Assembly (NCBI GenBank): GCA_030697705.1 | Contig: JAUYPE010000002.1 | Coordinates: forward strand, 4,312-68,311 | DNA length: 64,000 nucleotides | Direction: 5' to 3' | Source: a bacterium | Lineage (GTDB): Bacteria; Patescibacteriota; Minisyncoccia; Sungbacterales; HO2-52-23 | Shown here: piece by piece, positions 1 to 42,689 of the stretch | Position numbering within the stretch: position 1 is the first letter of the stretch | Layout of the letters: every line of letters begins with the position of its first letter | Program-made: the position numbers and the translations under genes | The notes under the pieces: generated by a model | Told to the model about the DNA's origin: nothing | What the model saw: only the letters and a program-made list of their open reading frames with translations | Databases searched by the model: none

Positions 1-682
1 GCATGGAGTCCAGCGCGGCATTAAACACTTGTATGGGATACCAATGCCATTCTTCTTTGTGTGTGTAAACACTTCCACGAAACTCATGTGCCGAAAACAG
101 ATGAAATGCGATATGATCTTTATCAGCAGACGCCCGCTCTACCATGTGATAAGGGGCAAAACCGACATAACAGAGGTTAGTAGTGGAGGCCAGAAAATCT
201 TCCGCACAGGTGCGAAAAACGCCTATCAAGGCCTGGATAACAGGACTCACGCCGCACTCCCGTTCAGCCCGATCAACTAAAAAACTTTCAATTGAACGGT
301 AGGAGTGAATCGCCCCGCCCTGCATCCACCACTTTCCTCCAAACGGTTTACCAAGCGCCCGTTTGACGGCAAGGAATCCCGCCTCACCATCCGGCATTCG
401 TGTCGTGATGACCACATCTGCGCACGCGCTATCCAGCCCCTGCCGATACCCGTCGTATATATCTGGACTTACCCCTCCACTGCGATGTCCGGGAGGAACA
501 GTAATGTCAACCTCACCTGCGTGGACATATCTTAACTTCCGTTCCTTTGTCAGATCAGATACATTACGCATCCAAATGACCGTATCGGTCAAAAATCTTT
601 TTCCGGAGAGTGTTTCTTCCGACACATCCAACTCCTTTTCCGTTGTGAAATAACACAAGAACTCCCATAAAAACCCACACAT
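1..682 (-). CDS. hypothetical protein, partial (runs off window start; start codon uncertain, 682 or 571)
   Basis: Open minus-strand frame with no stop from ~682 to position 1 (hand translation ...MRNVSDLTKERKLRYVHAGEVDITVPPGHRSGG...FGGKWWMQGG...); absent from the ORF track only because it lacks a stop inside the window. No family recognised. Confidence 0.3.
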   Translation of the reverse strand, partial: MCGFLWEFLCYFTTEKELDVSEETLSGKRFLTDTVIWMRNVSDLTKERKLRYVHAGEVDITVPPGHRSGGVSPDIYDGYRQGLDSACADVVITTRMPDGEAGFLAVKRALGKPFGGKWWMQGGAIHSYRSIESFLVDRAERECGVSPVIQALIGVFRTCAEDFLASTTNLCYVGFAPYHMVERASADKDHIAFHLFSAHEFRGSVYTHKEEWHWYPIQVFNAALDSM

Positions 683-712
683 CTGACACGAAGCAATATA
701 GCAAATAAATAC

Positions 713-1816
713 CTATTTGTCCAGACATCGGTAAAGTTCTTGATATTCTCCTATTCGTTTTTCCCACGATGAGGCGCGAGCAAATGCGCGTGAGGCATCT
801 GACATTTTTTGGCGGAGTTCTTGATTGGCAAGAATTTTTTGCAAGGCGGCGGCAAAGTCGTCAGGATCACGCGTAGGAACGAGAATACTGTTTTCGCCAT
901 CGCGCACCGCATCGTCAATCCCGCAGTTTTTGCTTCCCACCACCGGAAGACCTGCGGCGGCGGCTTCCAGAAATACTAAACCAAAACCCTCTACATCATG
1001 ATTCACATTTTGTGAAAAAAGACAAAAGAGTTCGGCTCCCTGATAGATATCGCTCAACGCCTCGCAGTTTTCTATACCGTCCAAAATAATAACGCGCCCT
1101 TCGAGTTGTAATTCCTTGATAAGTTTGGTAAGCCGTTCGTCATAGTCATGTTTATACCTTTTACCGACGATGACATAGTTCAGATGAGGAAATGCTGTAG
1201 CTATTTTCGCAAACGCACGGATGCTGAAATGGTATCCCTTCCGCCAGCGGATCGTACCCACACCGAGAATATAATCCTTGAGTCCCGCCGTGTCATATGC
1301 GCCATAAGGTTTGGCAAAAAAATCAGCATCAACACCGTGGTTGATGACGCGAATTTTCAGGTTGGGTATTTTTTTCAGAATCTCGTCTCGCGTAAATGAG
1401 CTGATAGCGGTAACGGTATTCGCCCGGGCGTAGGCATACCGAACCGGCCAAGAGTATAGCCAATGATACAGCGGTAAAATTGAACCGCTCCCCGTTGCGG
1501 TAATGATTATTTTTTTCCTAAGACCGAGTGAGGCGAAAACCGCGATGATCCCGTACGGAAACGCATCAAGCGCATGAATAATATCCGCGTTTTTCAGCGT
1601 GCGGCGAATACGGGGAAGAGCGCGAAACAACCGCCACTTGTTGGGATAGAGAATCGCTTCTTCATAATCCTCTCCGGTTCTAACCGTCGTGAGAACGCGC
1701 ACGTGACTCCCCACATCCGCACGCACAGCAGAAATCAACCGGCGCGAGAAGACGCCGGCACCGTTGTCAGTATGAATATTGTGCGTCAGGAAGACGATCC
1801 GCATACTTTTTTGCAA
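713..1816 (-). CDS. glycosyltransferase family 4 (GT1-fold, retaining)
   Basis: C-terminal EGFGLVFLEAAAAGLPVVGS motif (E-x7-E GT4 signature); 367 aa. Confidence 0.75.
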   Translation of the reverse strand: MQKSMRIVFLTHNIHTDNGAGVFSRRLISAVRADVGSHVRVLTTVRTGEDYEEAILYPNKWRLFRALPRIRRTLKNADIIHALDAFPYGIIAVFASLGLRKKIIITATGSGSILPLYHWLYSWPVRYAYARANTVTAISSFTRDEILKKIPNLKIRVINHGVDADFFAKPYGAYDTAGLKDYILGVGTIRWRKGYHFSIRAFAKIATAFPHLNYVIVGKRYKHDYDERLTKLIKELQLEGRVIILDGIENCEALSDIYQGAELFCLFSQNVNHDVEGFGLVFLEAAAAGLPVVGSKNCGIDDAVRDGENSILVPTRDPDDFAAALQKILANQELRQKMSDASRAFARASSWEKRIGEYQELYRCLDK

Positions 1817-2874
1817 ACCGCCGTCATCTCACGACCGGCTTTGTGCCATGAGAATAGTTTCGTCCGCTCATGACCTTTTTTAATAAGCTCCTCGCGCACA
1901 CCCGGCTCATCCGCAATCCGCGCCATCGCACCGGCTATCGCTTCAGGACGGTGCGGATCAATCAAAAGCGCCGCATCTCCACCGACTTCAGCAAGCGAGG
2001 ATTGATCGGATGTAACGACGGGAATGCCGCAATCCATTCCCTCTAAAACCGGATAGCCAAAACCCTCTATAAAACTGGGAAAAACGAGAGCCATGGCGCG
2101 GCGATACATATAAGAAAGCTGACCATCATTCATGTGCCCGGGGAAGATAATTTTCTCTTCCAGTTTCTCTGCCGTGATATATTCGCGAATCGCGTCCGCA
2201 TAGGGACCGACCGCATTTCCGGCAATGACGAGGTGATAGTCGCGATGTGTTTTTTGAAACGCGTTGAATCCGCGCACGACATTGAATACATTCTTACGCT
2301 CTTTCACGATACCGACAAAGAGGAAGAAATTTTCCGGCAGAGCAAGCCGCGTTTCGGGAACGGCGCAGACACGCTTGAAACCGCACCGCACGACATCAAT
2401 TTTTTCCGCCTGCATATGAAAAATACGCATCGTCTCTCGCTTGGTTGCTTCGGAAATGGCGACGATACGGTCGGCGCGCCAAAGCGAACGGCGATGATAC
2501 CAATAGGTTATGGTATTGAGAATCCTGCCAAAAAATCCGTGCGGGGGAAAATCAAGATAGGCGAAATCAAGAGCAAGCGCGATGGATTTAGGCGGTCGCC
2601 AGAACAGCGGCAGAACGGGCGTGTTAAAAACATACACATCGGCACGAGGCGCGGTTTTCAGGCGATCAAGCCAAAGATAGCCGCTCCCCAAGATTTCAAT
2701 ACGCCAATTTTTTCCGGAGAATTCCGGCAAAACGCGTGGCTTGTTTTTGAGAAAAATGATATAGTCGTTTTCTCTGTCCTCCGCGATCATGCCGGTCGTC
2801 AATTCAAAAATCGTCCGCGCGAGTCCGGCGGGCTTATCCTCACCGTAGGGATGGAGAACGATGCCGATTTTCAT
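1786..2874 (-). CDS. glycosyltransferase family 4
   Basis: FIEGFGYPVLEGMDCGIPVVTSD GT4 motif; 31-nt overlap with the downstream GT. Confidence 0.75.
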   Translation of the reverse strand: MKIGIVLHPYGEDKPAGLARTIFELTTGMIAEDRENDYIIFLKNKPRVLPEFSGKNWRIEILGSGYLWLDRLKTAPRADVYVFNTPVLPLFWRPPKSIALALDFAYLDFPPHGFFGRILNTITYWYHRRSLWRADRIVAISEATKRETMRIFHMQAEKIDVVRCGFKRVCAVPETRLALPENFFLFVGIVKERKNVFNVVRGFNAFQKTHRDYHLVIAGNAVGPYADAIREYITAEKLEEKIIFPGHMNDGQLSYMYRRAMALVFPSFIEGFGYPVLEGMDCGIPVVTSDQSSLAEVGGDAALLIDPHRPEAIAGAMARIADEPGVREELIKKGHERTKLFSWHKAGREMTAVCKKVCGSSS

Positions 2875-4022
2875 ACAAGTTGGCTCTCCATAAAGTGTAC
2901 TATGCGTAGTGCCCGCTCACCCCATGAAGAGTGCAAATGCTGATAAGCTTGATTGACCTTATCCTGTGCCTCATCGGGATGTTCAAAAATATATCTGATC
3001 CTTTCTGGAATGTCTGCGGCCTTATCTGCCGGATAAACGAACGCTTCATTGTTGGAAAGAATACTCGCAATCGCCGGCGTCACGCTTGCAAGAATCGGAC
3101 GACGCGCCGCCGCATACTCAAATATCTTCATAGGCGAAGTATAAAAATATGAATAGTCATCCTTCTCGGTTCCCAGAACGATCAAGACATCAGCCGCCCA
3201 AAGCCAACGGGGAATTTCCGCAAAAGGTTTTTGCCCGACACACACAAGATTTGCAGGTTGTTCGTTTATTAAACCAACGGTACGCAATTCTTCAGCAGTT
3301 CCTCCTACGAGATAAAAGAGAATATTCGGCATAAGGATTGCCGCTTCAACAAATTGTCCCAATCCTTTCCATGGATAGACCTTGCCGATATACATTACCA
3401 TTCGCCGGTCAGATGAAAGACCGAGAAGAGTACGGGCAACTTCTTTGCTTTCCGGCTTATCAAACAAAGCACGGTCAACCGCATTCGGTTCAACTATATT
3501 TTTTTTGTTAGGAACATGAAAACGATAACACAACTGCGCCTTGATAATTTCGTTAATTGATATGACGCCGGATGCATATCGAAAGAGAAGAATGAATTGC
3601 CATAACTTCTTTTTCGCATCGTGCATTTCAACGAAATACGGCACACCAAGGAACGGGATGAGAAAAAAAGAAAACTGGTCAAGATCGGTCGTGTAGATAA
3701 CGAACTTCTCGTGGCGTACCCAGTGCTTCCAACCGAGATAAAAAAAATATCCCACCGCAAAGCTCAATGAACCGAGAAAAAAACCGAACCGGCCGAATGT
3801 ATAGAGCGGCAGGATGCGGAGCCGTTTGAGCGGAATGTCCACACGCAAACCGTAAAAATCTTTTACGCTTCGGGTATCTGTTTCTCGTCGCGGCACGACC
3901 AACTCAAGGTTAACACCCACCTCCAAAAACGCCTCGCACATTTTGGCAAGTTGAATACCGTGCGCCCGTTCGGTTGGCATGCGCGCGTTGGCGATATAAT
4001 AAATTTTATAGGGAAAGTCCAT
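2871..4022 (-). CDS. glycosyltransferase (GT4-like)
   Basis: N-term MDFPYKIYYIANARMPTERAHGIQ (GT4 N-domain), C-term FEYAAARRPILAS; 4-nt overlap with the upstream gene. Confidence 0.6.
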   Translation of the reverse strand: MDFPYKIYYIANARMPTERAHGIQLAKMCEAFLEVGVNLELVVPRRETDTRSVKDFYGLRVDIPLKRLRILPLYTFGRFGFFLGSLSFAVGYFFYLGWKHWVRHEKFVIYTTDLDQFSFFLIPFLGVPYFVEMHDAKKKLWQFILLFRYASGVISINEIIKAQLCYRFHVPNKKNIVEPNAVDRALFDKPESKEVARTLLGLSSDRRMVMYIGKVYPWKGLGQFVEAAILMPNILFYLVGGTAEELRTVGLINEQPANLVCVGQKPFAEIPRWLWAADVLIVLGTEKDDYSYFYTSPMKIFEYAAARRPILASVTPAIASILSNNEAFVYPADKAADIPERIRYIFEHPDEAQDKVNQAYQHLHSSWGERALRIVHFMESQLV

Positions 4023-4041
4023 AAGGGAAACACATTCCCCG

Positions 4042-5079
4042 TTACGCCATCAACCGGCGGATGAGCTTTTCCTCATCAAATACCCAGCGCACGAGTTTGG
4101 CGGCACCGTGTTCAAAATCAATGCGCGGCTCCCAACCCAGATCTTTTTTAATCCGCGCAAGATCGGAGATATACACTTTTTGATCGCCCGGACGCCACGC
4201 GGCGAAGGAATAAGCGATTTTGGTCTGCATGATCTTCTCCAGCACGGCAATCGCCTCAAGGAGCGAGAAGGTATTTCCCGCGCCACCACCGATATTATAA
4301 ATTTTACCGCTAACTTTGGCGATATTTTTAATCGCCAACTCGTAAAGCGTGCACACATCGTCAATGAAAACAACATCACGCACCTGTCGTCCGTCACCGT
4401 AAATCGTCAGCGGACGATGAAGGAGTGTGGAAATAACGAACCAGGCAATCCATCCCTGATCCTCCACACCGAACTGGTGCGGTCCGTAAATGCACGACTG
4501 ACGAAAAACAACCGTCTTAAGACCATAGATGCGCGCATAGTCGCGGACGTATTGATCCGCAGCACCCTTACTGCAACCGTAGGGGGAATGAAAATCAACC
4601 GGCGTCGATTCGGAAACGCCCCGAGGCAGATCACGATACCAGTAGCCGGCATCGGTGAGTTCCACCGCCGCGTTTTCCAAATTGCCATATACCTTATTGG
4701 TGGAGGCGTAGAGCACGGCAGGTCTACGAACAGAACGGCGCACCGCCTCAAGAACATTGAGTGTCCCCTCGGCATTGACTTTGAAATCATGGTGAGGATC
4801 CGCCATGGAGTGTGTCACGGCAACCTGTGCCGCCAGATGCAGTACCGCGTCCACCCGTTCCATAAAACCGACCATGGCATCCGCGCCATCCGTGATATCA
4901 TGCTCAACTATCTTGCACCGCCCGCCCCATTTTTTCTTGAGCCAGAGGGCATTTTCGCCCGACCCCTTGCGGGAGAGATCGTCCACTATCGTCACTTCGT
5001 ATCCTTTACCAAGAAAATAATCGGCGCTGTTCGTGCCGATAAATCCAGCCCCGCCGGTAATGAGTATGTGTTTTGCCAT
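4042..5079 (-). CDS. NAD-dependent sugar epimerase/dehydratase, CDP-paratose 2-epimerase (RfbE/Prt)-like
   Basis: ILITGGAGFIGTN Rossmann motif, DDLSRKGS, YASTNKVYG; the layout matches CDP-paratose/tyvelose epimerases as recalled from memory. Confidence 0.65.
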   Translation of the reverse strand: MAKHILITGGAGFIGTNSADYFLGKGYEVTIVDDLSRKGSGENALWLKKKWGGRCKIVEHDITDGADAMVGFMERVDAVLHLAAQVAVTHSMADPHHDFKVNAEGTLNVLEAVRRSVRRPAVLYASTNKVYGNLENAAVELTDAGYWYRDLPRGVSESTPVDFHSPYGCSKGAADQYVRDYARIYGLKTVVFRQSCIYGPHQFGVEDQGWIAWFVISTLLHRPLTIYGDGRQVRDVVFIDDVCTLYELAIKNIAKVSGKIYNIGGGAGNTFSLLEAIAVLEKIMQTKIAYSFAAWRPGDQKVYISDLARIKKDLGWEPRIDFEHGAAKLVRWVFDEEKLIRRLMA

Positions 5080-12213: not shown

Positions 12214-13233
12214 CTACCGTGTCAATGCGAAACGAAACCCCCCAACCGGGGCTGTTGCGCTCGTCACATACGATTGATAGAGCTCAACTATTAACGAGCC
12301 ATTGACTACATAATCAAGCGATTCAATCCAGAGACCGAAGCTTTGATTCGTTGCACTTGCCAATGTTATAGGAAATGACAACTTGACCTGACGGCGAAAT
12401 GACCCCCCCACCGGCGGCGGGTCGTTGTTAATGACAAAATTAGTTTTACTGATGAGCGTATCACTCGTGGATGTCCCATTGCGTACGATAAACTCAACTG
12501 TTTTATTCCGGTTAAGCGTTGAATTCATCCCGTCATGAATATCAAGCTCTAATTGTACAAACGCGACCGGATTCGCAGTAGTATTCGCAATAGCGATATC
12601 TCCAATTTTGAGGGGCGTTATCATCGTATTCGGAAACAACTGCTCAAATGAGCCGCTGATGCGAACTTCGGAAACCAGAATGGGAGCGGGAGACGCGAGC
12701 GGTGTTGAAGACGCGACGGGAATCGGTGACACCACGTGAGTGGTTGTCGCCTGAACGGGGGGCGTTTGTTGCTCCGCCGCCAGTTGCGCGCGCAACACAA
12801 CGAGACGTGCCTGCAATACCAGGATTTGCGACAAAAGATCATTTTGAAGCATGGTTGCGGTATCGTCCCCTCCTTGAACTACTTTATCCTGAAGCAAAAC
12901 ATTTATCCGCGCCCGTGTCAACGGACCAAAAAAACCACTCGCCGGCATGATCCCCTCTCGCTTCTGCAGTAATACGACGGCCCCGCGCGTCGCAACACCG
13001 TAATAACCTGTGATTTTCCCGCCCAAGTAGATTTGAGGATCCTGCGCCAGCCACTCCTGTAACTGGCGGACATCATCCCCTTGTGCACCCAATGACAAAT
13101 TGCGGTCAAATACCGCTCCCGCCGCAAGGGGAACGAAGAGCGCCAGCATCACGAGACAACAAAAGAAATAGTGCTTTCTAAACATGCTCCAATAATACCG
13201 CAACACGGAGACAATCGCAAGAAAGAAAGCCAA
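12214..13233 (-). CDS. membrane-anchored peptidoglycan-binding (PG_binding_1) domain protein
   Basis: N-terminal TM, then LSLGAQGDDVRQLQEWLAQDP...GYYGVATRGAVVLLQ (PG_binding_1 pattern), coiled-coil, beta-rich C-terminus. Confidence 0.6.
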   Translation of the reverse strand: MAFFLAIVSVLRYYWSMFRKHYFFCCLVMLALFVPLAAGAVFDRNLSLGAQGDDVRQLQEWLAQDPQIYLGGKITGYYGVATRGAVVLLQKREGIMPASGFFGPLTRARINVLLQDKVVQGGDDTATMLQNDLLSQILVLQARLVVLRAQLAAEQQTPPVQATTTHVVSPIPVASSTPLASPAPILVSEVRISGSFEQLFPNTMITPLKIGDIAIANTTANPVAFVQLELDIHDGMNSTLNRNKTVEFIVRNGTSTSDTLISKTNFVINNDPPPVGGSFRRQVKLSFPITLASATNQSFGLWIESLDYVVNGSLIVELYQSYVTSATAPVGGFRFALTR

Positions 13234-13405
13234 AGACCGAGAGAATACATGAACACCTGAATTCTTATTGCATCATCCGGAGTCCCCGCCCGCCGGCGGG
13301 CGTGGCGCCCGGGACGGACGAATAACCCTATAAACAACCACCTCCCGTCGCACAAGGCACGGGAGGTGGTGAGAATTCCTATTACACAACCATTACAGAA
13401 TCCAT

Positions 13406-14575
13406 TTACGGAGTCACTCCGGATGATCCGCTTGAAACCTCAAGGAGTTTTGCGCGGGTTTTCGGCCCCACATATCCATAGGCAAACTCGCCTTCTTGGG
13501 CGATACCATACCGCTCCTGAAATCGCCCGACTGCTTTACGAGTCAGTGGTCCGAAGTAACCGCTTATAATGCCTTCTGGGTAAAGAGTTGAATCAGAGGC
13601 GAGATATTTTTGAAGAGCGCGAACATCATCACCCTGAAAACCATCGTCTATATCCCGTCCGAGAGCGAGCGGGGCGGCCACTTCTGCAGAAACGGGTGGG
13701 TTCGCGACAGGAACGACCGACTGATCCGGAGTAGCGACATCTTCGGATCCGGAAAGTTCAGCAAGTTTCATCCGCGTCTGCGGACCAACTCTCCCTACCG
13801 GCGGCAAGCCGTACTTCGCCTGAAATCGACGCACCGCCGCGCGGGTCAGAGCACCGTAGTAACCAGTAACCCTTCCTTCGGGATACATTATAGGATCTTT
13901 TGCGAGCCACTCCTGCAACTGCCGGACATCATCTCCTTCAGCGCCCAACGAGAGATCACGGGTCAGCACCAGTGTCGACCCTAAGGAACTTTCCCGTGAA
14001 GTACCATCAGGAGAAGACAAGACCGTCGGTAGAACAGGTGGGACGGCAAGAGGAGCTTGAGCGACCACACTCACAGACGAGGTTGCGGTGGATGAGGTGG
14101 CAGTGCTCACAGCAACTGGCGAGGATGTTACCGATCCACCGCCCCCGCCACCCCCTCCTCCACCACCGCCACTACTGCTAACACCCGAACCACTGTCTCC
14201 CCCGCCACTGGTAGTGCAGGTACCCGAAGGCGTTACCGTAACGGTCTCCGTTGCCGAACCCGAAGGCACAGAGAGGAACACGCGCGATTCACTTGCTTTG
14301 CACTCTGTTGCAACACTCTTTGAGTTTGTCAATGTTTTCTTACCGGCAGACGACAACTCCACGCTACTGCCCGCTGACAAAACGAAAGTAAAAGTGCCGT
14401 TATTAATGTCAACCGAATCAAAAGTACCCGACACAATTGTGTACTCCGATCCGTCCGATGGCAGAACGAGCGTCGGACCACCCACCGCCGTCACGGCGGC
14501 GGCAAGCACCCCGAGCGGCAGAATCACGACGACACTGCATAAAACAGAAATGATTCGTTTCATTGTGATGCGCAC
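13406..14575 (-). CDS. secreted protein with poly-Gly/Ser linker and two PG_binding_1 domains
   Basis: Signal peptide; G13 run; LSLGAEGDDVRQLQEWLAKDP...GYYGALTRAAVRRFQ and GFQGDDVRALQKYLASD...GYFGPLTRKAVGRFQ. Paralogous to the domain in 12214-13233. Confidence 0.6.
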   Translation of the reverse strand: MRITMKRIISVLCSVVVILPLGVLAAAVTAVGGPTLVLPSDGSEYTIVSGTFDSVDINNGTFTFVLSAGSSVELSSAGKKTLTNSKSVATECKASESRVFLSVPSGSATETVTVTPSGTCTTSGGGDSGSGVSSSGGGGGGGGGGGGSVTSSPVAVSTATSSTATSSVSVVAQAPLAVPPVLPTVLSSPDGTSRESSLGSTLVLTRDLSLGAEGDDVRQLQEWLAKDPIMYPEGRVTGYYGALTRAAVRRFQAKYGLPPVGRVGPQTRMKLAELSGSEDVATPDQSVVPVANPPVSAEVAAPLALGRDIDDGFQGDDVRALQKYLASDSTLYPEGIISGYFGPLTRKAVGRFQERYGIAQEGEFAYGYVGPKTRAKLLEVSSGSSGVTP

Positions 14576-26179: not shown

Positions 26180-26231
26180 AGATATAAATAATAACGAGAG
26201 CAATGTTTAAGTTGTTTTCTTTTCTTTGTTT

Positions 26232-26358
26232 GTCATTCCCGTCCCCGCTTTTGCGAGGATAAACTCCGCGAGGAATCCCGTTAGTTTTCAGTCCCCACAA
26301 GGGGGATACTAGCTATATGCTGAAATCGTACGGGATCCTTCGCTACGCTCTGGATGAC
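26232..26358. repeat. MITE-like palindromic repeat, copy C (longer variant)
   Basis: gtcattcccgtcc...tgctgaaatcgtacgggatcc...tggatgac; sits in the clpB upstream region. Confidence 0.65.
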
Positions 26359-26673
26359 GGACGATAGAGAAGACCGAAACCTAGACCCTATTTGCTTTAA
26401 TATCTTATCAGAAAACAGAGACAAAATCAAACAAAAACGCCTATTACTTCAAAATAAGAGTATTGGATGAAGTTAGAACCACCCCCCTATATTTTCCCAA
26501 TAAAAACTGAAACGAGATACGCTGTCATTGTGGAAACAACGCTGGACTTTCTAACATATTAGCTTTCCACGCTCAATCTTCAATAATCTCGCCTCAATGT
26601 CCTTTAGTGAGGAGGGTCCGGAATAATCAAGAACATATTCATCTTTCGATTTTTGTTTTATTTCCATTTTCCA

Positions 26674-26789
26674 TCAAAAAGTCAACACGCGGAATGATTC
26701 GGCATACTTAAGGTGTTTTTTCTTGCCCTCACTCTTGGCACGAATGCGAATCCTCTCCTTTATTTTTTTGATGTCTGGAATCTGGAATT
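26674..26789 (-). pseudogene. relic of the 3' end of an LmbE/PIG-L family deacetylase gene (~38 codons)
   Basis: Minus-strand translation ...EFQIPDIKKIKERIRIRAKSEGKKKHLKYAESFRVLTF* aligns with the C-terminus of the intact LmbE-like gene at 27535-28272 (...ESQIPDVKKMEERIRTRAKNEGKKKKMRYAETFRRLMF*). The frame is closed by a stop upstream. Confidence 0.6.
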
Positions 26790-26889
26790 CGTAGGCACAC
26801 ACTGCTCAAATCTTTTTCCCACTTGTTTTTGTACGAGCATCCCTACGCACGCATTGACCATAGCCCTTACTCAATGCTATGATCATCAT

Positions 26890-27102
26890 ATGAATAGTAT
26901 CACACCAACTCGTATTTATAATAAATTGACGCGTCTTGAGCAAGAAATCCAACGACTCAAAGCCCAAGCGTATCTTACGCTCCCCCACAAGACACGCACT
27001 ACTCCGCGGTATACGGAAAAAGCGATTATGGAGGCGGTGCGCGGAGTACGCGACACTATCTGGAACGAACGCTATGCCAAAAAGATTACGCGTATTCGTT
27101 GA
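26890..27102 (+). CDS. putative antitoxin (small ORF overlapping PIN gene start)
   Basis: 71-aa ORF (MNSITPTRIYNKLTRLEQEIQRLKAQ...) whose 3' end overlaps the PIN start by 29 nt; family not recognised. Confidence 0.4.
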   Translation: MNSITPTRIYNKLTRLEQEIQRLKAQAYLTLPHKTRTTPRYTEKAIMEAVRGVRDTIWNERYAKKITRIR

Positions 27103-27499
27103 TACGAGCGCGCTTCTTGCCGGACTCAATTCACCTAACGGCGCGGCAGGAGCCATCCTTGCCGCATGTTTTTCGAAACGGCTCATACCCGTTATTTCAC
27201 GGCAAGTCATTGAGGAGGCGGAACGGAATATTGAGATGAAATTCCCCGCGCTTCATCGTGCATGGGAAGCGTTTCTTCGTATCCCGCCAGAACTTGCTCC
27301 GGATCCGTCGTTACGCCAAATCCGCAAAGTACACCAAATCTTGCCTACGAGTGATGCGCCAATTCTTGCAAGCGCGCTCAAAGCGCATCCCGATGCATTG
27401 GTAACATGGAATACTCGGGACTTCCTCCGCAAGGAGGTTATGTTACGCACTCCCTTCCCCATTTTCATCCCACGGGATTTTCTCAAACAATATCTTTAG
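27074..27499 (+). CDS. PIN-domain protein (VapC-like toxin)
   Basis: RVFVDTSALLAGL (first acidic residue), TSDAPILASAL, TWNTRDF - PIN acidic-residue pattern. Start MPKRLRV at 27074, not the extended ORF-track frame. Confidence 0.65.
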   Translation: MPKRLRVFVDTSALLAGLNSPNGAAGAILAACFSKRLIPVISRQVIEEAERNIEMKFPALHRAWEAFLRIPPELAPDPSLRQIRKVHQILPTSDAPILASALKAHPDALVTWNTRDFLRKEVMLRTPFPIFIPRDFLKQYL

Positions 27500-27534
27500 G
27501 AATTAGGAACTCTAGTTACAGAAGCTCCACGGGA

Positions 27535-28272
27535 TTAAAACATCAACCTTCGAAATGTCTCCGCATACCGCATTTTCTTTTTCTTGCCCTCGTTTTTAGC
27601 GCGAGTACGGATGCGCTCCTCCATTTTTTTGACATCGGGAATTTGGGACTCATGTGCCCGCAGAGCCGCAAGTTTTTTTCCAATGGTTTTGGAAATGTCT
27701 ACAAACATATTCGGTCGGTCGGTACCAAAAAACCACACCCCTTGCATCTGGTGCGGCAAAAGATCCTCCTGTTTGAGTTCGGGGAAAAATGCGTGCGAAG
27801 CGGTCGCCGGATAAATCGCGTCAAATACCGCCTCGGCGGTAATCCGATGGTCGCGGTGAAATCGCCCAAAACTATCAAAGAGATGGTTTCCCGGATCGGC
27901 CGAGAGGACGACATCCGGTTTTACCTCGCGCATAACGCGGATGAGGCGCCGCCGAAGCTCTGCAGTATGCTCCAAATCTCCATCCGTCTCGCGCAAGAAA
28001 TGAATGTCTGAAACGCCGACAATCGCGCCCGCCGCGCGCTGTTCTCTCTCGCGCATAGCTATCATTTCTTCGCAGGTCTGACTGACTTTGTGCGTTCCCT
28101 TCTCGCCGTTCGTTATAATGCAATAGGCGACTTCGTTGCCCTTTGCCGTCAGCGTAGCAATCGTCCCCGCACAGCCGAAGTCAAGATCATCCGGATGCGC
28201 CGAAAAGACAAGAAATTTTCTCGGTTTTGATTTTTTATTTGTCGTACTTTTTACCCTATACGCCATAGACAT
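27535..28272 (-). CDS. LmbE/PIG-L family N-acetylglucosaminyl deacetylase (BshB-like)
   Basis: FSAHPDDLDFGCAGTIATL and HxDH-type motifs (FHRDHRITAEAV). Confidence 0.75.
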   Translation of the reverse strand: MSMAYRVKSTTNKKSKPRKFLVFSAHPDDLDFGCAGTIATLTAKGNEVAYCIITNGEKGTHKVSQTCEEMIAMREREQRAAGAIVGVSDIHFLRETDGDLEHTAELRRRLIRVMREVKPDVVLSADPGNHLFDSFGRFHRDHRITAEAVFDAIYPATASHAFFPELKQEDLLPHQMQGVWFFGTDRPNMFVDISKTIGKKLAALRAHESQIPDVKKMEERIRTRAKNEGKKKKMRYAETFRRLMF

Positions 28273-28320
28273 ACAGACCCAATATCCTTAATTGGGTGAG
28301 GAGACCTTGACCCTTAATAA

Positions 28321-28686
28321 CTACACCTCAATGATCGTGATTTCTTTGATTTTCTGAAACTGGCGATCACGGGTAACGAGCGACACATTTCGGATCATGG
28401 CGGTTGCCGCAATCCCTGCGTCGGGAATCGCAAGCGCATAATTTCTCCGTAGCCGTGCGGCAATTTCCGCAATCGCATCATCAAACGGGATAGATATGAA
28501 ATTGGCGAGAAATGCTTTCGCCTTTGCACTATCCTCTTCCGTGAGTCCGGGAAATGCAAGAGTTTCTGCGATGGTGAGTGAAGAAATAAGGAGAGCTCTT
28601 CCCATCTGTTTCCACTCAGAAAGAGCGTATACCGCTTTTGGCTCGGCATTGAGACACGCAATAATGATATTCGTATCAACGAGCAT
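28321..28686 (-). CDS. PIN-domain toxin VapC
   Basis: MLVDTNIIIA..., ...IAETLAFP..., ...VTRDRQF PIN signature; start at 28686 one nt after the upstream antitoxin stop. Confidence 0.75.
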   Translation of the reverse strand: MLVDTNIIIACLNAEPKAVYALSEWKQMGRALLISSLTIAETLAFPGLTEEDSAKAKAFLANFISIPFDDAIAEIAARLRRNYALAIPDAGIAATAMIRNVSLVTRDRQFQKIKEITIIEV

Positions 28687-28687
28687 G

Positions 28688-28900
28688 CTAAGAAGAAACA
28701 CTCTTGAGTTGTTTTTGCATGCGTTTATTCCACTCTTGACGAATCCGGCGTTGATACCCTACTGCGTCAACTTTTTTTCCTTTCAGTATGCCGATTGCAT
28801 TAGTCCAACTCTTGGGGAGCGGATAGCGCACAGAGTCCACTATTTCAGAAGCCACAATCCCTGCTCTATTTGTTTTTGTCTCTCTTGCTTTTGTTGGCAT
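28688..28900 (-). CDS. putative VapB-type antitoxin
   Basis: 70-aa ORF MPTKARETKTNRAGIVASEIVDSVRYPLPKSWTNAIGILKGKKVD... directly upstream of the PIN gene (SpoVT/AbrB-like swapped-hairpin flavour). Confidence 0.5.
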   Translation of the reverse strand: MPTKARETKTNRAGIVASEIVDSVRYPLPKSWTNAIGILKGKKVDAVGYQRRIRQEWNKRMQKQLKSVSS

Positions 28901-29009
28901 GGATTGCAGTATAACATATATTAAAAAATAAAACAAGAAAAAGCGAGGGTACTGTCCGAGCCGCTCTATGCGCGGGGCAATATAACTGTCACACACAAAT
29001 CAATCATCA

Positions 29010-30085
29010 CATTTCCATCCCGAGGCGTTTTTTAATCTCTGCCACAAGTTCAGGGGAATAACGCTCATACACCCGGTTTCTTGTATTCCGCTGTTGCTCA
29101 AACCATTGAGGATGTACTCTTTATGTATTGCTCGACTATTCTTTTCACCGCAACATCACCAAGTTTACACACTTGTTTTAACTCGTTAAGCCCAAGCCAT
29201 TCAGACCGGACATCAGGAATTGATTTCATTTGAGAGATCCTTTGCTTAATTTCTTGGACTAATTCCGGAGCATAATGTTCAGCCTTTTGGTGTGACTTCT
29301 TAACCTGACGCTTCCCCAGCCATTCGGGATGTTCTGCGCGATATTCTTCAGCAATTTTTCTAATATACTTTGAATAACGAAATGCACCTCTCTGTACACT
29401 TCAAACAAGCCGCAGGCGGTGCGGTTATGACGAGAACATACTCAAAACAAGGAAACTCGAACTGGAACGAACTGAGGAGACCAATGGATCATACGGCGAT
29501 GATTACACGACAAGATACGCTGAAATTGCAGACAGGTAGTGGGTAAGATAGCCGTCAATGGATCGGGGGAACGAGGTGACCAGTCCATAGCAGAGCTTGA
29601 GAATGCGGAAGTGGATCTCAACCCGCATGCGCAGATTGAGTAGCACGATATGGATAGGGGTTGAGAGAATCCACGAATTTCTGATACGAGAGAGGGGGCT
29701 CCATGATCTCCCAGAGTGATTTCTTAGTGGCAATATTTTGCTTCTGCTTCAGGATTGCGCAGGTTACGGCTTCGCTGTTGGTAAGGGCTGATTTCCGACC
29801 TTTGGGATGTTCCCGATCTTTGAGTTTCAATGAATGGAATAGTTGTGATACTCTTGCTTTGAGGGTGTAATAGATTGTAAGGAAGGTGTTCATACAAGTG
29901 GCGGCGTAAGCCGTCCCTTGTATTGTAGCAGAAAAGGTGATGTGGTGCATTTCGTTATTCAAAGTATGGTAGTCATCATACAGCTCGTGGCGTTGGATCG
30001 GGGTTAATCGGGTGCGTTTGTGGATGGTCATGTTGTTTACCGTACCGCCGATAGCCATTCCGGCAATGGCGGAGACTGTAAACAA
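29010..30085 (-). mobile_element. degenerate transposase pseudogene, possibly IS630/Tc1-like, frameshifted
   Basis: 155-aa ORF (29618-30085) with HTH-like RLTPIQRHELYDDY and HPKGRKSALTNSEAV (cf. IS630 N-terminal GRP motif). Downstream frames are broken but translate to ...EHYAPELVQEIKQRIS... and ...RYSPELVAEIKKRLG... (cf. the YSPDLNPIE tail of IS630/Tc1). GC is visibly lower than in flanking genes. Confidence 0.3.
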
Positions 30086-30110
30086 CGCTAGGGATTCTTA
30101 CAAGTAAAAC

Positions 30111-31394
30111 CTACTTCCTCTCATCAAGCTTCACCTTCACGCTTATTTCTTTACCGGCACGGAATACGGTCAAAGTAATTTCCTCACCAACGGCGTGGTT
30201 TTGGACAATAGCCGACAATGCGCGATTCGCATCAATCCGCTCGCCGGCAACGACAAGAATAATATCTCCTTCTTTCAAACCCGCACGGTCAGCCGGACCG
30301 CCGGGCACGACTGCAGGACCGTCGGTATTTTTACCAAGCAATGCGCCGTAATTCCTGCCGAGATTCAAGCTTTTGGCAAGGTCGTCGGTAACGGGCGCGT
30401 ACCGCACACCAAGGTAGGGATAGATTATCTTGCCGGTTTTGCGTACACTCTCAATATCACGTTTAACTTTATTGATGGGAATGGCAAAACCGATGCTCTG
30501 CGCGCCGCTCGCCACGGCGGTATTGATGGCAACCACCTCGCCGTAGACATTGATAAGCGGTCCGCCGGAGTTGCCGGGATTAATTGCCGCATCGGTCTGC
30601 ACCAATTCCTGCAATGCCTCTGGACCGTCCGCTCCGCCATTAGCAACGATGGAACGCTGAAGACCGGAGACGACGCCAACTGAAACGGTATTGCGGAATT
30701 CGCCGAGCGCATTACCGATGGCGATGACGGTCTGCCCGATTTTAATTGCTGAAGAATCGGCAAGTTTAAGAAACGGCAAGTTTGAGCCGGTTATCTGCAG
30801 AATCGCCAGATCCTGCACGGGATCGCGCGCCAAGACCTTCGCGGGCAATTTTTTGCCGTCGTTCGTGAGAACGGTAAAGTCCGCAGTTACATCGGCGACG
30901 ACATGTTTGTTCGTCACAATAAACCCATCGGCTGATACGATGAATCCACTTCCCGCAGAAACTTCTTGCCGTTTCGTCCCGTTTTGGCGAAGTTGCGGCA
31001 CTTGAAGGTTTGGATTCTCACCAAAAAATTGCTTAAAGAATGGGTCATCGCCGAATGGATCCACAAAATACCGCTCAATAATGGGAACATCTTTACTCGC
31101 CACTATACTGACTACGGCGGGTGAGGCGTTTTTGACCACCTGTACCACCAGTTCATCGGAGCGAACGATGCGCTCAATAGCCTCTTTTGTTTCGGGCGTT
31201 ACCGGCTTATCGCCCGACTTTTGCCGCGGGAAAAAATAAGATGGAATAATCGCCTCCTGGCTTACCATGGAACCGCGCCCGAAAACGCCAAGCACAAGCG
31301 TTGTGCCGATGAGCGAGGCGAGAAAACTTAACACGACGGCGAAAATAACCATCTGGCGCATGGTCGGCTGGGGTTGTTGTTGATGATCGGGCAT
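30111..31394 (-). CDS. htrA: HtrA/DegP-family serine protease with PDZ domain
   Basis: N-terminal TM; trypsin-like catalytic motifs (TNKHVV, DLAIL, GNSGGPLINVYGEVVAINTA); C-terminal PDZ. Confidence 0.85.
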   Translation of the reverse strand: MPDHQQQPQPTMRQMVIFAVVLSFLASLIGTTLVLGVFGRGSMVSQEAIIPSYFFPRQKSGDKPVTPETKEAIERIVRSDELVVQVVKNASPAVVSIVASKDVPIIERYFVDPFGDDPFFKQFFGENPNLQVPQLRQNGTKRQEVSAGSGFIVSADGFIVTNKHVVADVTADFTVLTNDGKKLPAKVLARDPVQDLAILQITGSNLPFLKLADSSAIKIGQTVIAIGNALGEFRNTVSVGVVSGLQRSIVANGGADGPEALQELVQTDAAINPGNSGGPLINVYGEVVAINTAVASGAQSIGFAIPINKVKRDIESVRKTGKIIYPYLGVRYAPVTDDLAKSLNLGRNYGALLGKNTDGPAVVPGGPADRAGLKEGDIILVVAGERIDANRALSAIVQNHAVGEEITLTVFRAGKEISVKVKLDERK

Positions 31395-31514
31395 AGGAAA
31401 AACTTTACATTTGAAACTCTGACAAGACCCTCCCTACTCTACCATACGGAACAACAATCGCAAAAGGTGCCTCACAAGGATATGCGCGGCATGGACTCTC
31501 CTAAAAAATACCCA

Positions 31515-31739
31515 TTACACCGCCTCAACACATCGCACCTCGGGCACGGCTTGTTTGAGCATCTCCTCAACTCCCGCTTTGAGCGTCAATTGCGAGAGCG
31601 GACAGCCGTGGCAAGTCCCAAGAAGTTGGACGAAAACCGTCCCCGTCCCCTCCTCAAACCGCACAAACTCAATATTCCCCAAATGCCTCGCCAGCATCGG
31701 CCTGATCTGCCCAAGCGCTTTTTCAATTTGTTCGATCAT
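31515..31739 (-). CDS. Nfu/NifU C-terminal-domain Fe-S cluster carrier
   Basis: 74 aa, GTCHGCPLSQLTLKAGVE CxxC motif typical of the Nfu domain. Confidence 0.7.
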   Translation of the reverse strand: MIEQIEKALGQIRPMLARHLGNIEFVRFEEGTGTVFVQLLGTCHGCPLSQLTLKAGVEEMLKQAVPEVRCVEAV

Positions 31740-31792
31740 AAAAGCCCTTATCTTAGCACTAACAGCCCAAGTTTTTCTTTGGCAATAAATTC

Positions 31793-32467
31793 TTACTGAC
31801 TACCACTCCTTGCAGATTCATCAACTAGTCTACTCTGAAGTTCTTTAGCTACTTTGAGTAGTTCTTCCATAGGATAGTCTTGTCGTCCAAGAAAGCCCCT
31901 TTCCGCACCCTTGTCTTTAAATTCCTCATAACGATCAATGAAATACTCCTGAATAAAACTAATCATCTCACTGGCAGGGAACCCCCTCATCCTCTCTCTA
32001 ACTTGTTCGTCAGTTAGTTTTTCTCCTCTACTTTGAGCATCTTGCGTTATCTTTTTTTCAACTATCAGGGAGAGGTTGTGGTCATCAAGCATGGATCGCT
32101 CCATTTTTAACTTTTCTATCAACTCCATTTTCCGACTATCTGTCGGCTTATTTTCTCTCTTCGCTTTCTCTATGGTCTCCTCATTGACGAATATTGCGTT
32201 ACGCAGGTTATACCATACCATGCTTGAAGTGCCCGCTTTTACATCAGCGGGTATCTCCAATTTTTTAGATCTTTCTAGTTTTCTATCCTGTTCTGCTTTT
32301 TCAAAACCCCTCGCTATTTTTCCTTCGGGATCATCCATTGTCATCGCTTTTGAATAATCCATCGTACCGTCAGGATTTCTTTTTGCACCAACAAAAATCC
32401 GGCTCTTTGGTTTTTCCTGCTCTGAAGGTTGTTCGGGTGTAGACCCACCCATTTCAGGACTTTTCAT
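31793..32467 (-). CDS. hypothetical Lys/Glu-rich protein
   Basis: ORF only; charged low-complexity sequence; no family recognised. Confidence 0.35.
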   Translation of the reverse strand: MKSPEMGGSTPEQPSEQEKPKSRIFVGAKRNPDGTMDYSKAMTMDDPEGKIARGFEKAEQDRKLERSKKLEIPADVKAGTSSMVWYNLRNAIFVNEETIEKAKRENKPTDSRKMELIEKLKMERSMLDDHNLSLIVEKKITQDAQSRGEKLTDEQVRERMRGFPASEMISFIQEYFIDRYEEFKDKGAERGFLGRQDYPMEELLKVAKELQSRLVDESARSGSQ

Positions 32468-32522
32468 AGTTTTTGTTGACCATACTCTTAGGATTAAATA
32501 TGCGGTTTACGACTGTATAATG

Positions 32523-41190: not shown

Positions 41191-41730
41191 TTACATCATC
41201 TGCTTCGGAGGCATCATCTCCTGCCCACCGGCATCCGGACTCTTTGATGGTACCGAACAAGTACGATAGAATTTGAAACCGATATAGAAGCCCCACAAGA
41301 CAACTGTACCAAAAAGATTCAAGAAGAAGTGAAGCCACGCTAAGTCAACGAAATTACCAAGAATACCAGGTGTTCCCTGCATGCCCGTCTGAAGATGCTG
41401 ATAATATTTAATGATATGTTCAAAGAAATGATAACTCTGGAGAATGGTCGCGAAGAAAAAAAGCTTGTAAAGAACTTTTTTATTCCTAGCTTCTTCCGGC
41501 AATCTTTGCAGGATAAGCCAGAATCCTAACGTGAACAGAAAGTCGTAAAAAAAGTGCACCGACTCAAGATCAAACTGACCGATTAACCCATGCGATCCGT
41601 CTATGCCAAGATCCAGGATGGCATACTGATAGATAATGGTGAAGTGTTCCATCATGTGCGCCGTCTGCGTAATAAGAACGATTCCATAAATAGCACAGAA
41701 CATACCTATGCTTTTATTTTTCATAATCAA
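41191..41730 (-). CDS. small membrane protein with two HxxEH motifs (paralog 1)
   Basis: HMMEHF and HFFEHI motifs in predicted TM helices; ~60% identical to the 42159-42689 product; shares a 100% identical ~95-bp tract. Confidence 0.5.
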   Translation of the reverse strand: MIMKNKSIGMFCAIYGIVLITQTAHMMEHFTIIYQYAILDLGIDGSHGLIGQFDLESVHFFYDFLFTLGFWLILQRLPEEARNKKVLYKLFFFATILQSYHFFEHIIKYYQHLQTGMQGTPGILGNFVDLAWLHFFLNLFGTVVLWGFYIGFKFYRTCSVPSKSPDAGGQEMMPPKQMM

Positions 41731-42158: not shown

Positions 42159-42689
42159 CTACATCTGCGCTGGAGGCGTCATTTCCTGTTTGTCCATACT
42201 GAAACTTTTTGATTCCGCTGAGCAGGTGCGATGAAACTTAAGGCCTATATAGATAACCCACAAGATAACCGTACCGATGAGATTCAGAGTGAAATGGAAC
42301 AATATTAGGTTGATGTGGTTTCCCAGAAAACCGGGGGTTCCTTGCATACCCGTTTGAATATACTGATAATATTTAATGATGTGTTCGACCATGTGGTAGC
42401 TCTGGACAACGACCCCAAAGACAAGAAGATTATACAAGAATTTTGAGGAGTCCTTGGCTTCTTCCGGCAATCTTTGCAGGATAAGCCAGAATCCTAACGT
42501 GAACAGAAAGTCGTAAAAAAAGTGCACCGACTCAAGATCAAACTGACCGATTAATCCGTGCGCAGGATCCACGCCAATGGCATACTGATAAACTTGGACG
42601 ATGTGCTCCAACATGTGAACCGATTGCACGATAAGCGTGAAACCGAATAGAGCACAGAACATACCTATACTTTTATTTTTCATAATCAA
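42159..42689 (-). CDS. small membrane protein with two HxxEH motifs (paralog 2)
   Basis: HMLEHI and HMVEHI. Upstream 60 bp (tttttcataatcaagaaaaaacactttttatttggataattacatgtctgatgtt) is duplicated with paralog 1. Confidence 0.5.
   Translation of the reverse strand: MIMKNKSIGMFCALFGFTLIVQSVHMLEHIVQVYQYAIGVDPAHGLIGQFDLESVHFFYDFLFTLGFWLILQRLPEEAKDSSKFLYNLLVFGVVVQSYHMVEHIIKYYQYIQTGMQGTPGFLGNHINLILFHFTLNLIGTVILWVIYIGLKFHRTCSAESKSFSMDKQEMTPPAQM

Follow-up and report, generated by a model that had tools for sequence, protein, structure and literature searches.

In an ultra-small bacterium of the Patescibacteria, a toxin-antitoxin (TA) cassette in the window (the whole stretch of 64,000 nt that was analysed) lies between an intact PIG-L/LmbE-family deacetylase gene and a dead, diverged copy of the end of that gene. 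This layout of gene end, cassette and gene end is general and occurs in many related genomes; a literature search of limited scope found no earlier description of it in Patescibacteria. We think it probable that the cassette was acquired horizontally through recombination anchored in the end of the LmbE gene, which would have regenerated an intact gene and displaced the stub. The features of the locus are as follows.

26674-26832, minus strand: dead displaced stub, the last 52 LmbE codons and the stop codon (tblastn)
26727-26740 and 27578-27591, no strand assigned: 14-nt exact match TTTTTCTTGCCCTC, the longest identical run between the LmbE copies
26854-26883, plus strand: predicted cassette promoter, TTGACC-18-TATGAT with a TG extension, its end 6 nt upstream of the antitoxin ATG
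26890-27102, plus strand: 70-aa antitoxin-like ORF, overlapping the toxin start by 29 nt
27074-27499, plus strand: predicted PIN_3-domain toxin of 141 aa (PF13470, E = 6.6e-11; score 43.5 bits, cut-off 27)
27535-28272, minus strand: intact PIG-L/LmbE-family deacetylase gene, 245 aa (PF02585, E = 4.7e-31)
28321-28900, minus strand: second TA-like pair, made up of a VapC PIN gene (28321-28686) with a 70-aa ORF upstream of it (28688-28900)
29506-29893, minus strand: internally deleted IS982-type (DDE_Tnp_1_3) transposase remnant (phmmer matches and Pfam scans of these)

The LmbE gene, its displaced end and the cassette

A tblastn search of the 245-aa LmbE protein against the whole window returned one second match, at 26677-26832 on the minus strand, in which residues 194-245 align with 33 of 52 positions identical (63% aa) and 44 of 52 positive (E = 7e-16). 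The counterpart in the intact gene is its last 52 codons (27538-27693), and the two ends are 67% identical over 156 nt. The sequence-only reading had described a PIN TA cassette with diverged copies of the LmbE 3' end as direct repeats on its two sides, with about 65-70% nucleotide identity, and both statements hold; the E value lies far below the 0.01 that it had named as the limit for a chance resemblance. Its estimate of about 38 codons for the relic was too short, as an in-frame TGA at 26806-26808 interrupts the stub and had shortened the ORF that was seen (26674-26802). The identical core ttcttgccctc (11 nt) that it had pointed out is present inside the 14-nt match TTTTTCTTGCCCTC, and this run (26727-26740 in the stub) is a possible crossover point. 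The similarity ends at both stop codons on one side and at 26832/27693 on the other.

Both copies belong to the PIG-L family, the intact gene by its domain match and the stub by alignment of the C-terminal extension, and 616 homologues of the window protein were found. At 20 family-conserved columns the intact copy retains every residue and the stub 16, and in the AHESQ motif the conserved A, H and S of the stub are gone. An independent Logan assembly (SRR13727529, locus L117) is 100% identical across 26333-32499, so that the structure does not depend on one assembler.

The differences between the two LmbE ends are distributed unevenly over the codon, with 14, 8 and 29 at first, second and third positions in 52 codons, which corresponds to a divergence of 0.15 at second and 0.56 at third positions. 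By these two values, no more than about a third of the divergence could have arisen by neutral drift of the stub. As the differences are mostly at third positions, both copies were probably coding for most of the time over which they diverged, and one of them would be xenologous. The best explanation of this pattern is that the copies are unlikely to stem from a duplication in place, one end being the resident one and the other probably derived from a diverged relative. Counts of 75, 47 and 216 differences by codon position in 486 codons were obtained for 14 coding repeat pairs from other loci, the most extreme of which has 75% nucleotide but 98% amino acid identity. A chimera test of the N-terminal against the C-terminal part of the intact protein, over 112 homologues, gave the same correlation for both ends (0.32 for the intact end and 0.29 for the stub), and a mosaic test against the gene of a syntenic Sungbacteria locus gave a weak, non-significant pattern around the 14-nt core. 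The GC profile shows a higher AT content in the accessory parts but does not tell where either LmbE copy came from.

Several lines of evidence point to a TA unit in the DNA between the two ends. The module of small ORF and PIN gene that had been proposed at 26890-27499 was recovered as the PIN_3 gene and the 70-aa ORF, and 160 homologues of the toxin were found, with identities of up to 85%. In a set of 37 of these, the acidic residues D10 and E48 never vary and D94 and D107 hardly do. The 70-aa ORF has no family match in Pfam, NCBIfam or PADLOC, and thus no recognised antitoxin family; it is conserved and co-linear with the PIN gene at L085, L005, L081, L108, L007 and L125, as in a type II system with a small, overlapping and co-conserved upstream gene. 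PADLOC and PDB sequence searches with both proteins gave no match. Homologous cassettes show the same TTGAC...TATACT/TATAAT arrangement upstream, and the homology with the sister cassette at L125 reaches into the promoter region. The features and their conservation are best explained if the cassette is a self-contained type II TA unit with its own predicted promoter, an antitoxin-like ORF and a putative PIN_3 nuclease toxin. A specific association of this cassette with LmbE was considered and rejected, as none of the 112 PIN_3 loci checked contains LmbE.

Synteny and recurrence of the layout

The window LmbE gene is syntenic with that of another Sungbacteria locus (L118), in which NifU, HtrA, a single PIG-L/LmbE gene and ClpB are found; the spacer there measures 169 nt, and cassette and stub are both absent. 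This shows that a single LmbE gene at the HtrA-ClpB locus is the ancestral synteny, with L118 being a distant relative only (63% aa identity in LmbE). No second LmbE fragment was seen in nine other loci fetched with LmbE homologues, and no genome was found that is near-identical and has an empty site. Likewise, the stub peptide was used to look for a live C-terminus nearly identical to it, in a donor or in the resident lineage, and gave no candidate; within the protein set the stub matches the intact copy in cis best (63%, with the next at 61.5%). The sister cassette at L125 adjoins clpB without an LmbE stub. Third-position divergence between L125 and the window is 0.37-0.41 in the cassette, lower than the 0.53 in clpB, and both observations speak for mobility of the cassette. 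As a point against the acquisition proposed here, LmbE-TA adjacency is absent from every sampled donor, and the L125 cassette does not lie beside LmbE.

Direct flank repeats (threshold E <= 1e-5) were detected at 15 of 55 dereplicated loci of the cassette family (27%), compared with 15 of 391 control positions (3.8%; Fisher p = 1.4e-7), and several of the control repeats are themselves TA cassettes in the same layout. Repeats of a gene 3' end with the intact gene adjoining occur at L021, L036, L040, L052, L058 and L096, and a repeat of a gene 5' end at L079/L072. L072 and L079 had been considered as one cassette in two contexts; they represent one ancestral insertion in which the stubs have eroded unequally. 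At L090 and L091 the repeated sequence is the 3' part of a tRNA gene (tRNA-Ile and tRNA-Glu), beginning in the region of the anticodon or of the T-arm and reaching the 3' end. Closely related cassettes differ greatly in their targets, which include LmbE, fusA, a kinase, DHFR, tRNAs and a gene 5' end. The repeats also differ in their degree of identity: some are near-identical (97% at L007, 100% at L093 and L090), and the longest exact match between the copies measures 14 nt in the window, 35 nt at L090, which is a perfect repeat, and only 3 nt at L096.

On three contigs, copies of the 3' end of fusA or of a histidine kinase gene lie between different TA cassettes. At L076, fusA is followed by three different TA cassettes with a fusA 3' copy after each; L054 is a second fusA array, and L088 holds five histidine-kinase 3' copies. 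In the arrays, only the last 30-250 nt of these genes are repeated, in 3-5 copies; the stubs of a single array range in length from 32 nt up to about 250 nt, there is a near-invariant core of 30-45 nt with mosaic arms, and some non-TA accessory genes are also present as cargo. L088 and L026 are colinear (77% over 764 nt), and at L026 no intact kinase gene lies alongside; from these alignments, gene-end fragments appear to travel together with the cassette.

Origin of the arrangement and comparison with known systems

In the account that we consider probable, a cassette was inserted at the 3' end of a resident PIG-L/LmbE gene by recombination anchored there, and the outcome would be one complete LmbE gene and a useless copy of its last 156 nt on the far side of the cassette. 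The favoured route, homology-facilitated illegitimate recombination, would combine a one-sided homologous anchor with an illegitimate joint; it has been proposed for C-terminal displacement in Rhs and T6SS genes (PMC5361080) and is rare in experiments (PMC5361080). Alternatively, a cassette circle bearing a copy of the gene end could have undergone Campbell-type integration. Either route would likely be supplied by natural transformation, and Patescibacteria are reported to retain genes for competence and homologous recombination (PMC12455944). With 67% identity and a longest match of 14 nt, the LmbE copies are too different for an ordinary RecA crossover within the repeat. As such a crossover is unlikely, also in view of the 3-nt match at L096, the anchor, if any, would lie upstream or in a closer, unsampled donor. 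Loss of the cassette by recombination between the repeats would kill the cell, so that TA cassettes may persist between them.

Recombination at a short core offers a different explanation, in which a cassette, or a larger element since eroded, carried an attP-like LmbE 3' end and was integrated by a tyrosine or serine integrase, the arrays having accumulated in tandem from CIME-like remnants without an integrase. Insertion of this kind, at a short identical core, is seen with islands whose target is a tRNA gene or the 3' end of a protein gene. The 14-nt core of the window, the cores and mosaic arms of the fusA and kinase arrays and the tRNA repeats that run to the 3' end, including the perfect 35-mer, speak for such integration; the array cores and the L090 repeat count against our favoured route, as they would also fit a site-specific recombinase acting in trans, and a replacement gene end borne by the element would account for the coding-type divergence too. 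Nevertheless, we regard this explanation as rather unlikely. No mobility gene lies between the two LmbE copies, and no recombinase was found in the window region, in the arrays or among the 25 Pfam families listed for 150 neighbouring ORFs, which contain no transposase family either (the list comprises families matched by at least two ORFs and the best-scoring single ones, with 108 single-ORF families outside it). A k-mer search for a motif common to the cassette borders returned only promoter and T-rich elements, related cassettes have highly diverse targets, the L096 repeat lacks any exact match above 3 nt, and stub lengths vary widely inside one array.

Two further explanations were weighed. 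The sequence-only reading had taken the relic for the rest of a second, tandem LmbE paralog, such that the cassette landed between or in two paralogs and the downstream one was deleted to its last 52 codons. Long coding-type divergence is as expected of old paralogs, and the intact copy in cis is the best match of the stub. The comparison with related genomes that it had called for gave a single LmbE gene at L118 and no second copy at any fetched LmbE locus, and the same layout is seen at unrelated genes, at tRNAs and in multi-copy stub arrays; given this recurrence, it is implausible that tandem paralogs were truncated again and again to similarly short stubs, and we consider the paralog origin highly improbable. 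A long target duplication in place, in which the 156 nt were identical at birth and diverged later, perhaps aided by allelic replacement of the intact gene, has a precedent in addiction-type modules with target duplications of 46-420 bp and no mobility genes (PMC2853133), and the near-identical repeats at L007, L093 and L090 are in line with it. For the window it appears improbable: neutral decay of the stub should affect the codon positions equally, against the 0.15 and 0.56 observed, and should match the synonymous divergence of the live copy, and the allelic replacement has to be added as a second event to rescue it.

Returning to the recombination anchored in the gene end, there is a likeness to the C-terminal (sequential) displacement arrays known from effector-immunity loci of the Rhs, CDI and T6SS types (Jackson, 2009; Poole, 2011; Kirchberger, 2017, PMC5361080), in which an intact gene is likewise followed by orphaned copies of 3' ends, small protective genes lie between the ends, and incoming DNA pushes older ends downstream without an integrase. 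An intact gene, orphaned 3' ends and cargo are present here too, with one stub in the window and several in the arrays at L076, L054 and L088. There, variable toxin domains are what is displaced, and the cognate immunity gene is carried between them, whereas here no polymorphic toxin-domain ends paired with immunity genes are seen: the displaced sequence is conserved and of the housekeeping type (LmbE, EF-G, kinase, tRNA), and autonomous TA cassettes unrelated to the gene make up the cargo, with some non-TA accessory genes in the arrays. The long target duplications of restriction-modification units (Nobusato, 2000; Furuta, Abe and Kobayashi, 2010, PMC2853133) are also of the addiction type and lack mobility genes, with direct repeats above 30 bp that are single-copy in the insert-free genome and that in some cases overlap gene 3' ends or tRNAs; they occur mostly in naturally competent species, by a mechanism that is not known (PMC2853133). 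In agreement with this, the repeat in the window measures 156 nt, the unit contains no mobility gene, and the sequence is single-copy at the same site in the insert-free L118, which is a distant relative (63% aa). In contrast to the about 90-100% identity of those repeats, for which arrays are not described, the window repeat is not near-identical, at 67% with coding-type divergence.

Integrative elements that target gene 3' ends, and their CIME remnants, share repeats of the 3' part of a gene, an intact gene, a diverged copy on the element side and tandem arrays. Here, the unit and its surroundings revealed no integrase (in the window region and the 25 listed families; an enzyme acting in trans is possible), the unit is only about 0.7 kb, the targets are very diverse, and some repeats have no identical core. 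Chromosomal integrons, including those with TA cassettes (PMC11023631), and the pdif modules of Acinetobacter plasmids likewise consist of small cassettes, with or without a promoter and often TA pairs, that are separated by repeats, and the TA cassettes stabilise the array. Unlike these, the present loci have no attC-like or dif-like sites, no intI and no border motif except the promoter; the repeat is the end of the adjoining host gene and is specific to the locus.

The layout points to a route of cassette acquisition that needs no integrase of its own. More tentatively, and with considerable doubt, it could be an integrase-free counterpart of the integron in Patescibacteria, in which copies of conserved gene ends would serve as portable homology arms for cassettes. 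The ends of fusA, histidine kinase, tRNA, LmbE and other genes would then move TA and small accessory cassettes between species by natural transformation and host recombination. Every arrival would regenerate the host gene, displace the previous end and so build an array, which the TA cargo would guard against repeat-mediated deletion, the window being a one-cassette instance. If true, this would explain how bacteria with tiny genomes and few classical mobile-element genes still acquire and stack accessory and defence-type cassettes beside intact essential genes, and would tie together the long target duplication of restriction-modification units, polymorphic-toxin C-terminal displacement and gene-end att sites. 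For annotation, a short diverged copy of the end of a neighbouring gene would be a signature that marks the border of a recently acquired cassette and flags which gene end may be foreign. For the window alone the consequence is modest, namely the scar of a TA cassette insertion.

The accessory islet around the locus

A further PIN gene, of the VapC type, and the remnant of an IS accompany the cassette, in agreement with the small accessory islet that the first inspection had proposed. The gene at 28321-28686 was confirmed as PIN/VapC (PF01850, E = 1.1e-19), as expected from the VapBC pair suggested at 28321-28900. This pair is missing from the syntenic L118, and no direct repeats flanking it were found. 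Two control repeats in the window, at 12958-13984 and at 41191-41730/42159-42689, proved to be tandem paralogs or repeated domains of the ordinary kind. In Rfam scans, the window region and the non-coding flank repeats yielded only tRNAs and one group II intron domain.

An IS remnant had been placed at 29010-30085; a remnant is indeed present and is of the IS982 type, in a narrower interval (29506-29893). Using tblastn with an IS982 protein (P0247), residues 4-79 match at 29887-29660 and residues 210-268 at 29682-29506, such that the N-terminal and C-terminal parts of the transposase are kept and the catalytic middle is missing.

The LmbE locus and its two gene ends

With its single cassette, the locus exemplifies a recurrent variant, apparently not described so far, of gene-end displacement or of long target duplication in Patescibacteria. 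The host contig belongs to a Patescibacteria (Parcubacteria-type) MAG, and positions 26333-32499 are identical in an independent Logan assembly of SRR13727529. The following features are found in the window:

31739-31515, minus: NifU
31394-30111, minus: HtrA-like protease
29893-29506, minus: internally deleted IS982-type (DDE_Tnp_1_3) transposase pseudogene, keeping residues 4-79 and 210-268 of the homologue used as query (P0247), catalytic middle gone
~29410-29000, minus: decayed, frameshifted ORF in which the motif HP(E/Q)W...Y(A/S)PELV.EIK.R is internally repeated
28900-28321, minus: 70-aa ORF and VapC PIN gene (PF01850, E=1e-19)
28272-27535, minus: intact PIG-L/LmbE gene (PF02585, E=4.7e-31)
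26854-26883, plus: promoter-like site of the cassette, TTGACC-18-TATGAT
26890-27102, plus: 70-aa ORF of the cassette
27074-27499, plus: PIN_3 gene of the cassette (PF13470, E=6.6e-11)
26832-26674, minus: LmbE stub
from ~26183, in minus-strand reading order beyond the stub and a 490-nt spacer: clpB

The toxin-antitoxin (TA) pair of the cassette is of an ordinary PIN_3 type, its antitoxin being unclassified. The second VapC gene and the IS remnant named in the sequence-only reading are both borne out; the called 155-aa ORF at 29618-30085 is the N-terminal part of the transposase joined to unrelated upstream sequence. No family match was obtained for the parts tested of the decayed ORF (29000-29410). 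The product of the intact LmbE gene matches an NCBI "PIG-L deacetylase family protein [bacterium]" with 100% identity, and its nearest other homologues, among them proteins named Kaiserbacteria and Sungbacteria, show 68-69% identity.

When the LmbE protein was compared with all 64 kb by tblastn, the sole match besides the gene itself was the stub, which aligns to residues 194-245 with 33 of 52 identical (E=7e-16). The diverged repeat of the LmbE 3' end claimed beside the cassette is thus real, and its estimated nucleotide identity of 65-70% agrees with the 67% measured. The stub contains one in-frame TGA (26806-26808) and zero frameshifts; the longest run identical between the copies is 14 nt, and their similarity is bounded exactly by both stop codons and by 26832/27693.

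The two copies differ at 14, 8 and 29 sites in codon positions 1, 2 and 3, with dN about 0.2 and dS saturated. Had the stub been a neutral pseudogene ever since the copies separated, change at its second positions should roughly equal that at the synonymous sites of the live copy, but divergence is 0.15 at the former versus 0.56 at the latter, indicating that both copies resided in working genes during most of their divergence and that the stub died recently. The stub is already decaying: out of 20 family-conserved columns it retains 16 (the live copy all 20), and from the AHESQ motif it has lost the A (now a stop), H and S. This coding-type divergence rules out that the sequence was simply duplicated in place and then decayed, and implies either a xenologous origin or old paralogy for one LmbE copy.

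The sequence-only reading had explained the stub as the remnant of a second, deleted LmbE paralog. Its proposals of a cassette insertion and of an accessory islet stand, but the deleted paralog is not supported: relatives show no second LmbE. The syntenic Sungbacteria contig (L118; L-numbers denote comparison loci fetched from other genomes) matches the window in gene order (NifU, HtrA, a single PIG-L, ClpB), with amino acid identities of 67% for HtrA, 63-65% for LmbE and 71-84% for ClpB, and its 169-nt LmbE-ClpB spacer holds neither cassette nor stub. No second LmbE fragment was found in the other fetched LmbE loci (L001-L004, L120, L122, L124). Relative to L118, the window carries two insertions, the IS982 remnant with VapBC upstream of LmbE, and the PIN_3 cassette with the stub downstream of it.

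The closest sister cassette, from a related genome (L125; Logan SRR22387757_3850832, 1-1408; PIN 85% identical in amino acids, 81% in nucleotides), sits upstream of clpB at a distance of 103 nt; this clpB and that of the window share 84% identity. No LmbE stub is present there; the other flank of the cassette is the end of a different gene. Third-position divergence from the window is 0.37-0.41 for the cassette and 0.53 for clpB, and this lower divergence suggests an exchange of the cassette at this one locus once the host lineages had separated. The stub-clpB spacer of the window (26184-26673) is AT-rich (36-42% GC), gave no match in Rfam, and may contain remains of older insertions.

Gene-end repeats around related cassettes

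From 112 loci encoding PIN_3 homologues, subsequently dereplicated, the 600 nt on either cassette side were compared by tblastx, with 391 pseudo-cassette positions as control. Direct flank repeats were detected in 15/55 cassette loci versus 15/391 controls at E<=1e-5 (Fisher's exact p=1.4e-7), and in 11/55 versus 11/391 at E<=1e-8 (p=9e-6). Several control matches are themselves TA cassettes with the gene-end repeat layout (L048, L096, L054), so that the real background lies below the control rate. L048 has a VapC gene flanked by repeats, and L096 a VapBC pair enclosed by a stub and a convergent DHFR gene's 3' end, just as the cassette of the window is arranged. Two control matches in the window are ordinary duplications: tandem paralogous membrane-protein genes (41191-41730 and 42159-42689), with some 40 nt of conserved sequence downstream of each, and neighboring genes sharing peptidoglycan-binding-like repeats (12214-13233 and 13406-14575).

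The repeated sequence is the 3' end of the adjacent intact gene, with the relic keeping its own stop codon, in L021, L036, L040, L052, L058 and L096; the 5' end of the downstream gene in L079/L072; the 3' part of a tRNA (tRNA-Ile, with a perfect 35-mer, and tRNA-Glu); or, for some, a non-coding repeat with hairpins (L007, L065). As LmbE occurs in 0/112 PIN_3 loci, the cassette is not LmbE-specific. When 14 coding repeat pairs are taken together, the differences by codon position are 75/47/216; one pair shows 75% DNA versus 98% protein identity, and in another the longest exact match is only 3 nt. The stubs are thus, in general, once-functional gene ends of diverged origin that fell silent recently.

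In L072 (3764-4549) and L079 (181-1055) the duplicated part belongs to a Zn-ribbon gene, whose intact start codon overlaps the PIN stop codon (ATGA); the upstream relic measures 111 nt in one genome versus about 30 nt in the other, which demonstrates stub erosion. An element some 100 nt long is conserved directly 3' of the PIN stop in L006 (915-1013), L087 (4432-4531) and L100 (5760-5858 and 7979-8060), with a pair of hairpins and changes that appear compensatory (GGTGTGC...GCCACACC versus GGTGCGC...GCCGCACC). It has no match in Rfam, is found away from cassettes too in L100, and is absent from the window. A group II intron catalytic domain (RF00029, 61.9 bits) occurs in L031 (25-97), just upstream of a repeat-flanked PIN_3 cassette.

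Cassette arrays and mobility

Some loci carry several cassettes in series. In L076 (array 124-4626) an intact fusA (124-2265) precedes three cassettes, consisting of two small ORFs, an RHH/MazF pair (NCBIfam E=1e-10) and an antitoxin/PIN_3 pair, each with a copy of the terminal 110-150 nt of fusA behind it (96%, 82% and 88% identical to the gene end). A second, independent fusA-end array (L054, 1-2141) contains a Phd/RelE-like pair and a Fic-like gene, as judged by eye from sequence motifs, without a family-library scan. L088 (1-6193) holds five copies of a histidine-kinase 3' end, separated by a 3-kb segment, a PIN_3 pair, a 168-aa ORF, a VapC gene and one more ORF; the copies (32 to ~250 nt) have an invariant core of ~30 nt in common, with mosaic arms. 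Near-invariant cores of 30-45 nt characterize the fusA and histidine-kinase array copies.

The unit of kinase end, promoter, antitoxin, PIN_3 and short kinase end is common to L088 and L026 (77% over 764 nt), and L026 lacks an adjacent intact kinase gene; pieces of gene ends can therefore move along with the cassette. L052 and L056 are 95% identical across cassette and relic, and diverge exactly past the relic stop codon. Apart from the promoter, cassette borders have no common sequence motif. When 150 ORFs lying no more than 4 kb from a cassette were assigned to Pfam families, no recombinase or transposase family was among those listed, namely all families with at least two ORFs and the best-scoring single matches; the 108 single-ORF families outside this set might include an integrase. 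The commonest families were AbiEii (6/150) and PIN_3 (5); with AbiEii-type (type IV TA) nucleotidyltransferase toxins as top neighbors, the cassettes cluster with other TA modules.

Possible routes of acquisition

The observations agree with a cassette gained through gene-end-anchored recombination, which regenerates the intact gene and displaces the other end copy. This could occur by one-sided homologous anchoring combined with an illegitimate joint, as has been proposed for Rhs C-terminal displacement and T6SS effector-immunity arrays (PMC5361080). The incoming unit would be a gene end with its downstream cassette, and the stub the former end of the resident gene; variable stub lengths, repeats without an identical core and the break just after the relic stop codon fit this route. 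Alternatively, a circle carrying the cassette and one gene-end copy could integrate in a Campbell-type event, with either host recombination or a trans-acting recombinase as the driving activity. In line with this second route are the conservation of cores, a tRNA repeat that is perfect and a weak mosaic pattern about the 14-nt core of the window, where the syntenic gene matches the stub at 32 and the live copy at 27 of the 43 nt on the 3' side, and the live copy at 60 and the stub at 54 of the 96 nt on the 5' side, neither difference being significant.

Patescibacteria reportedly retain comEC/pilus competence and homologous-recombination genes (PMC12455944), and competent species are enriched for a related phenomenon that involves restriction-modification units (PMC2853133). 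That TA pairs predominate in the cargo, beside some non-TA genes in the arrays, would most simply reflect survivorship; deletion of a TA cassette via the repeats would lead to post-segregational killing.
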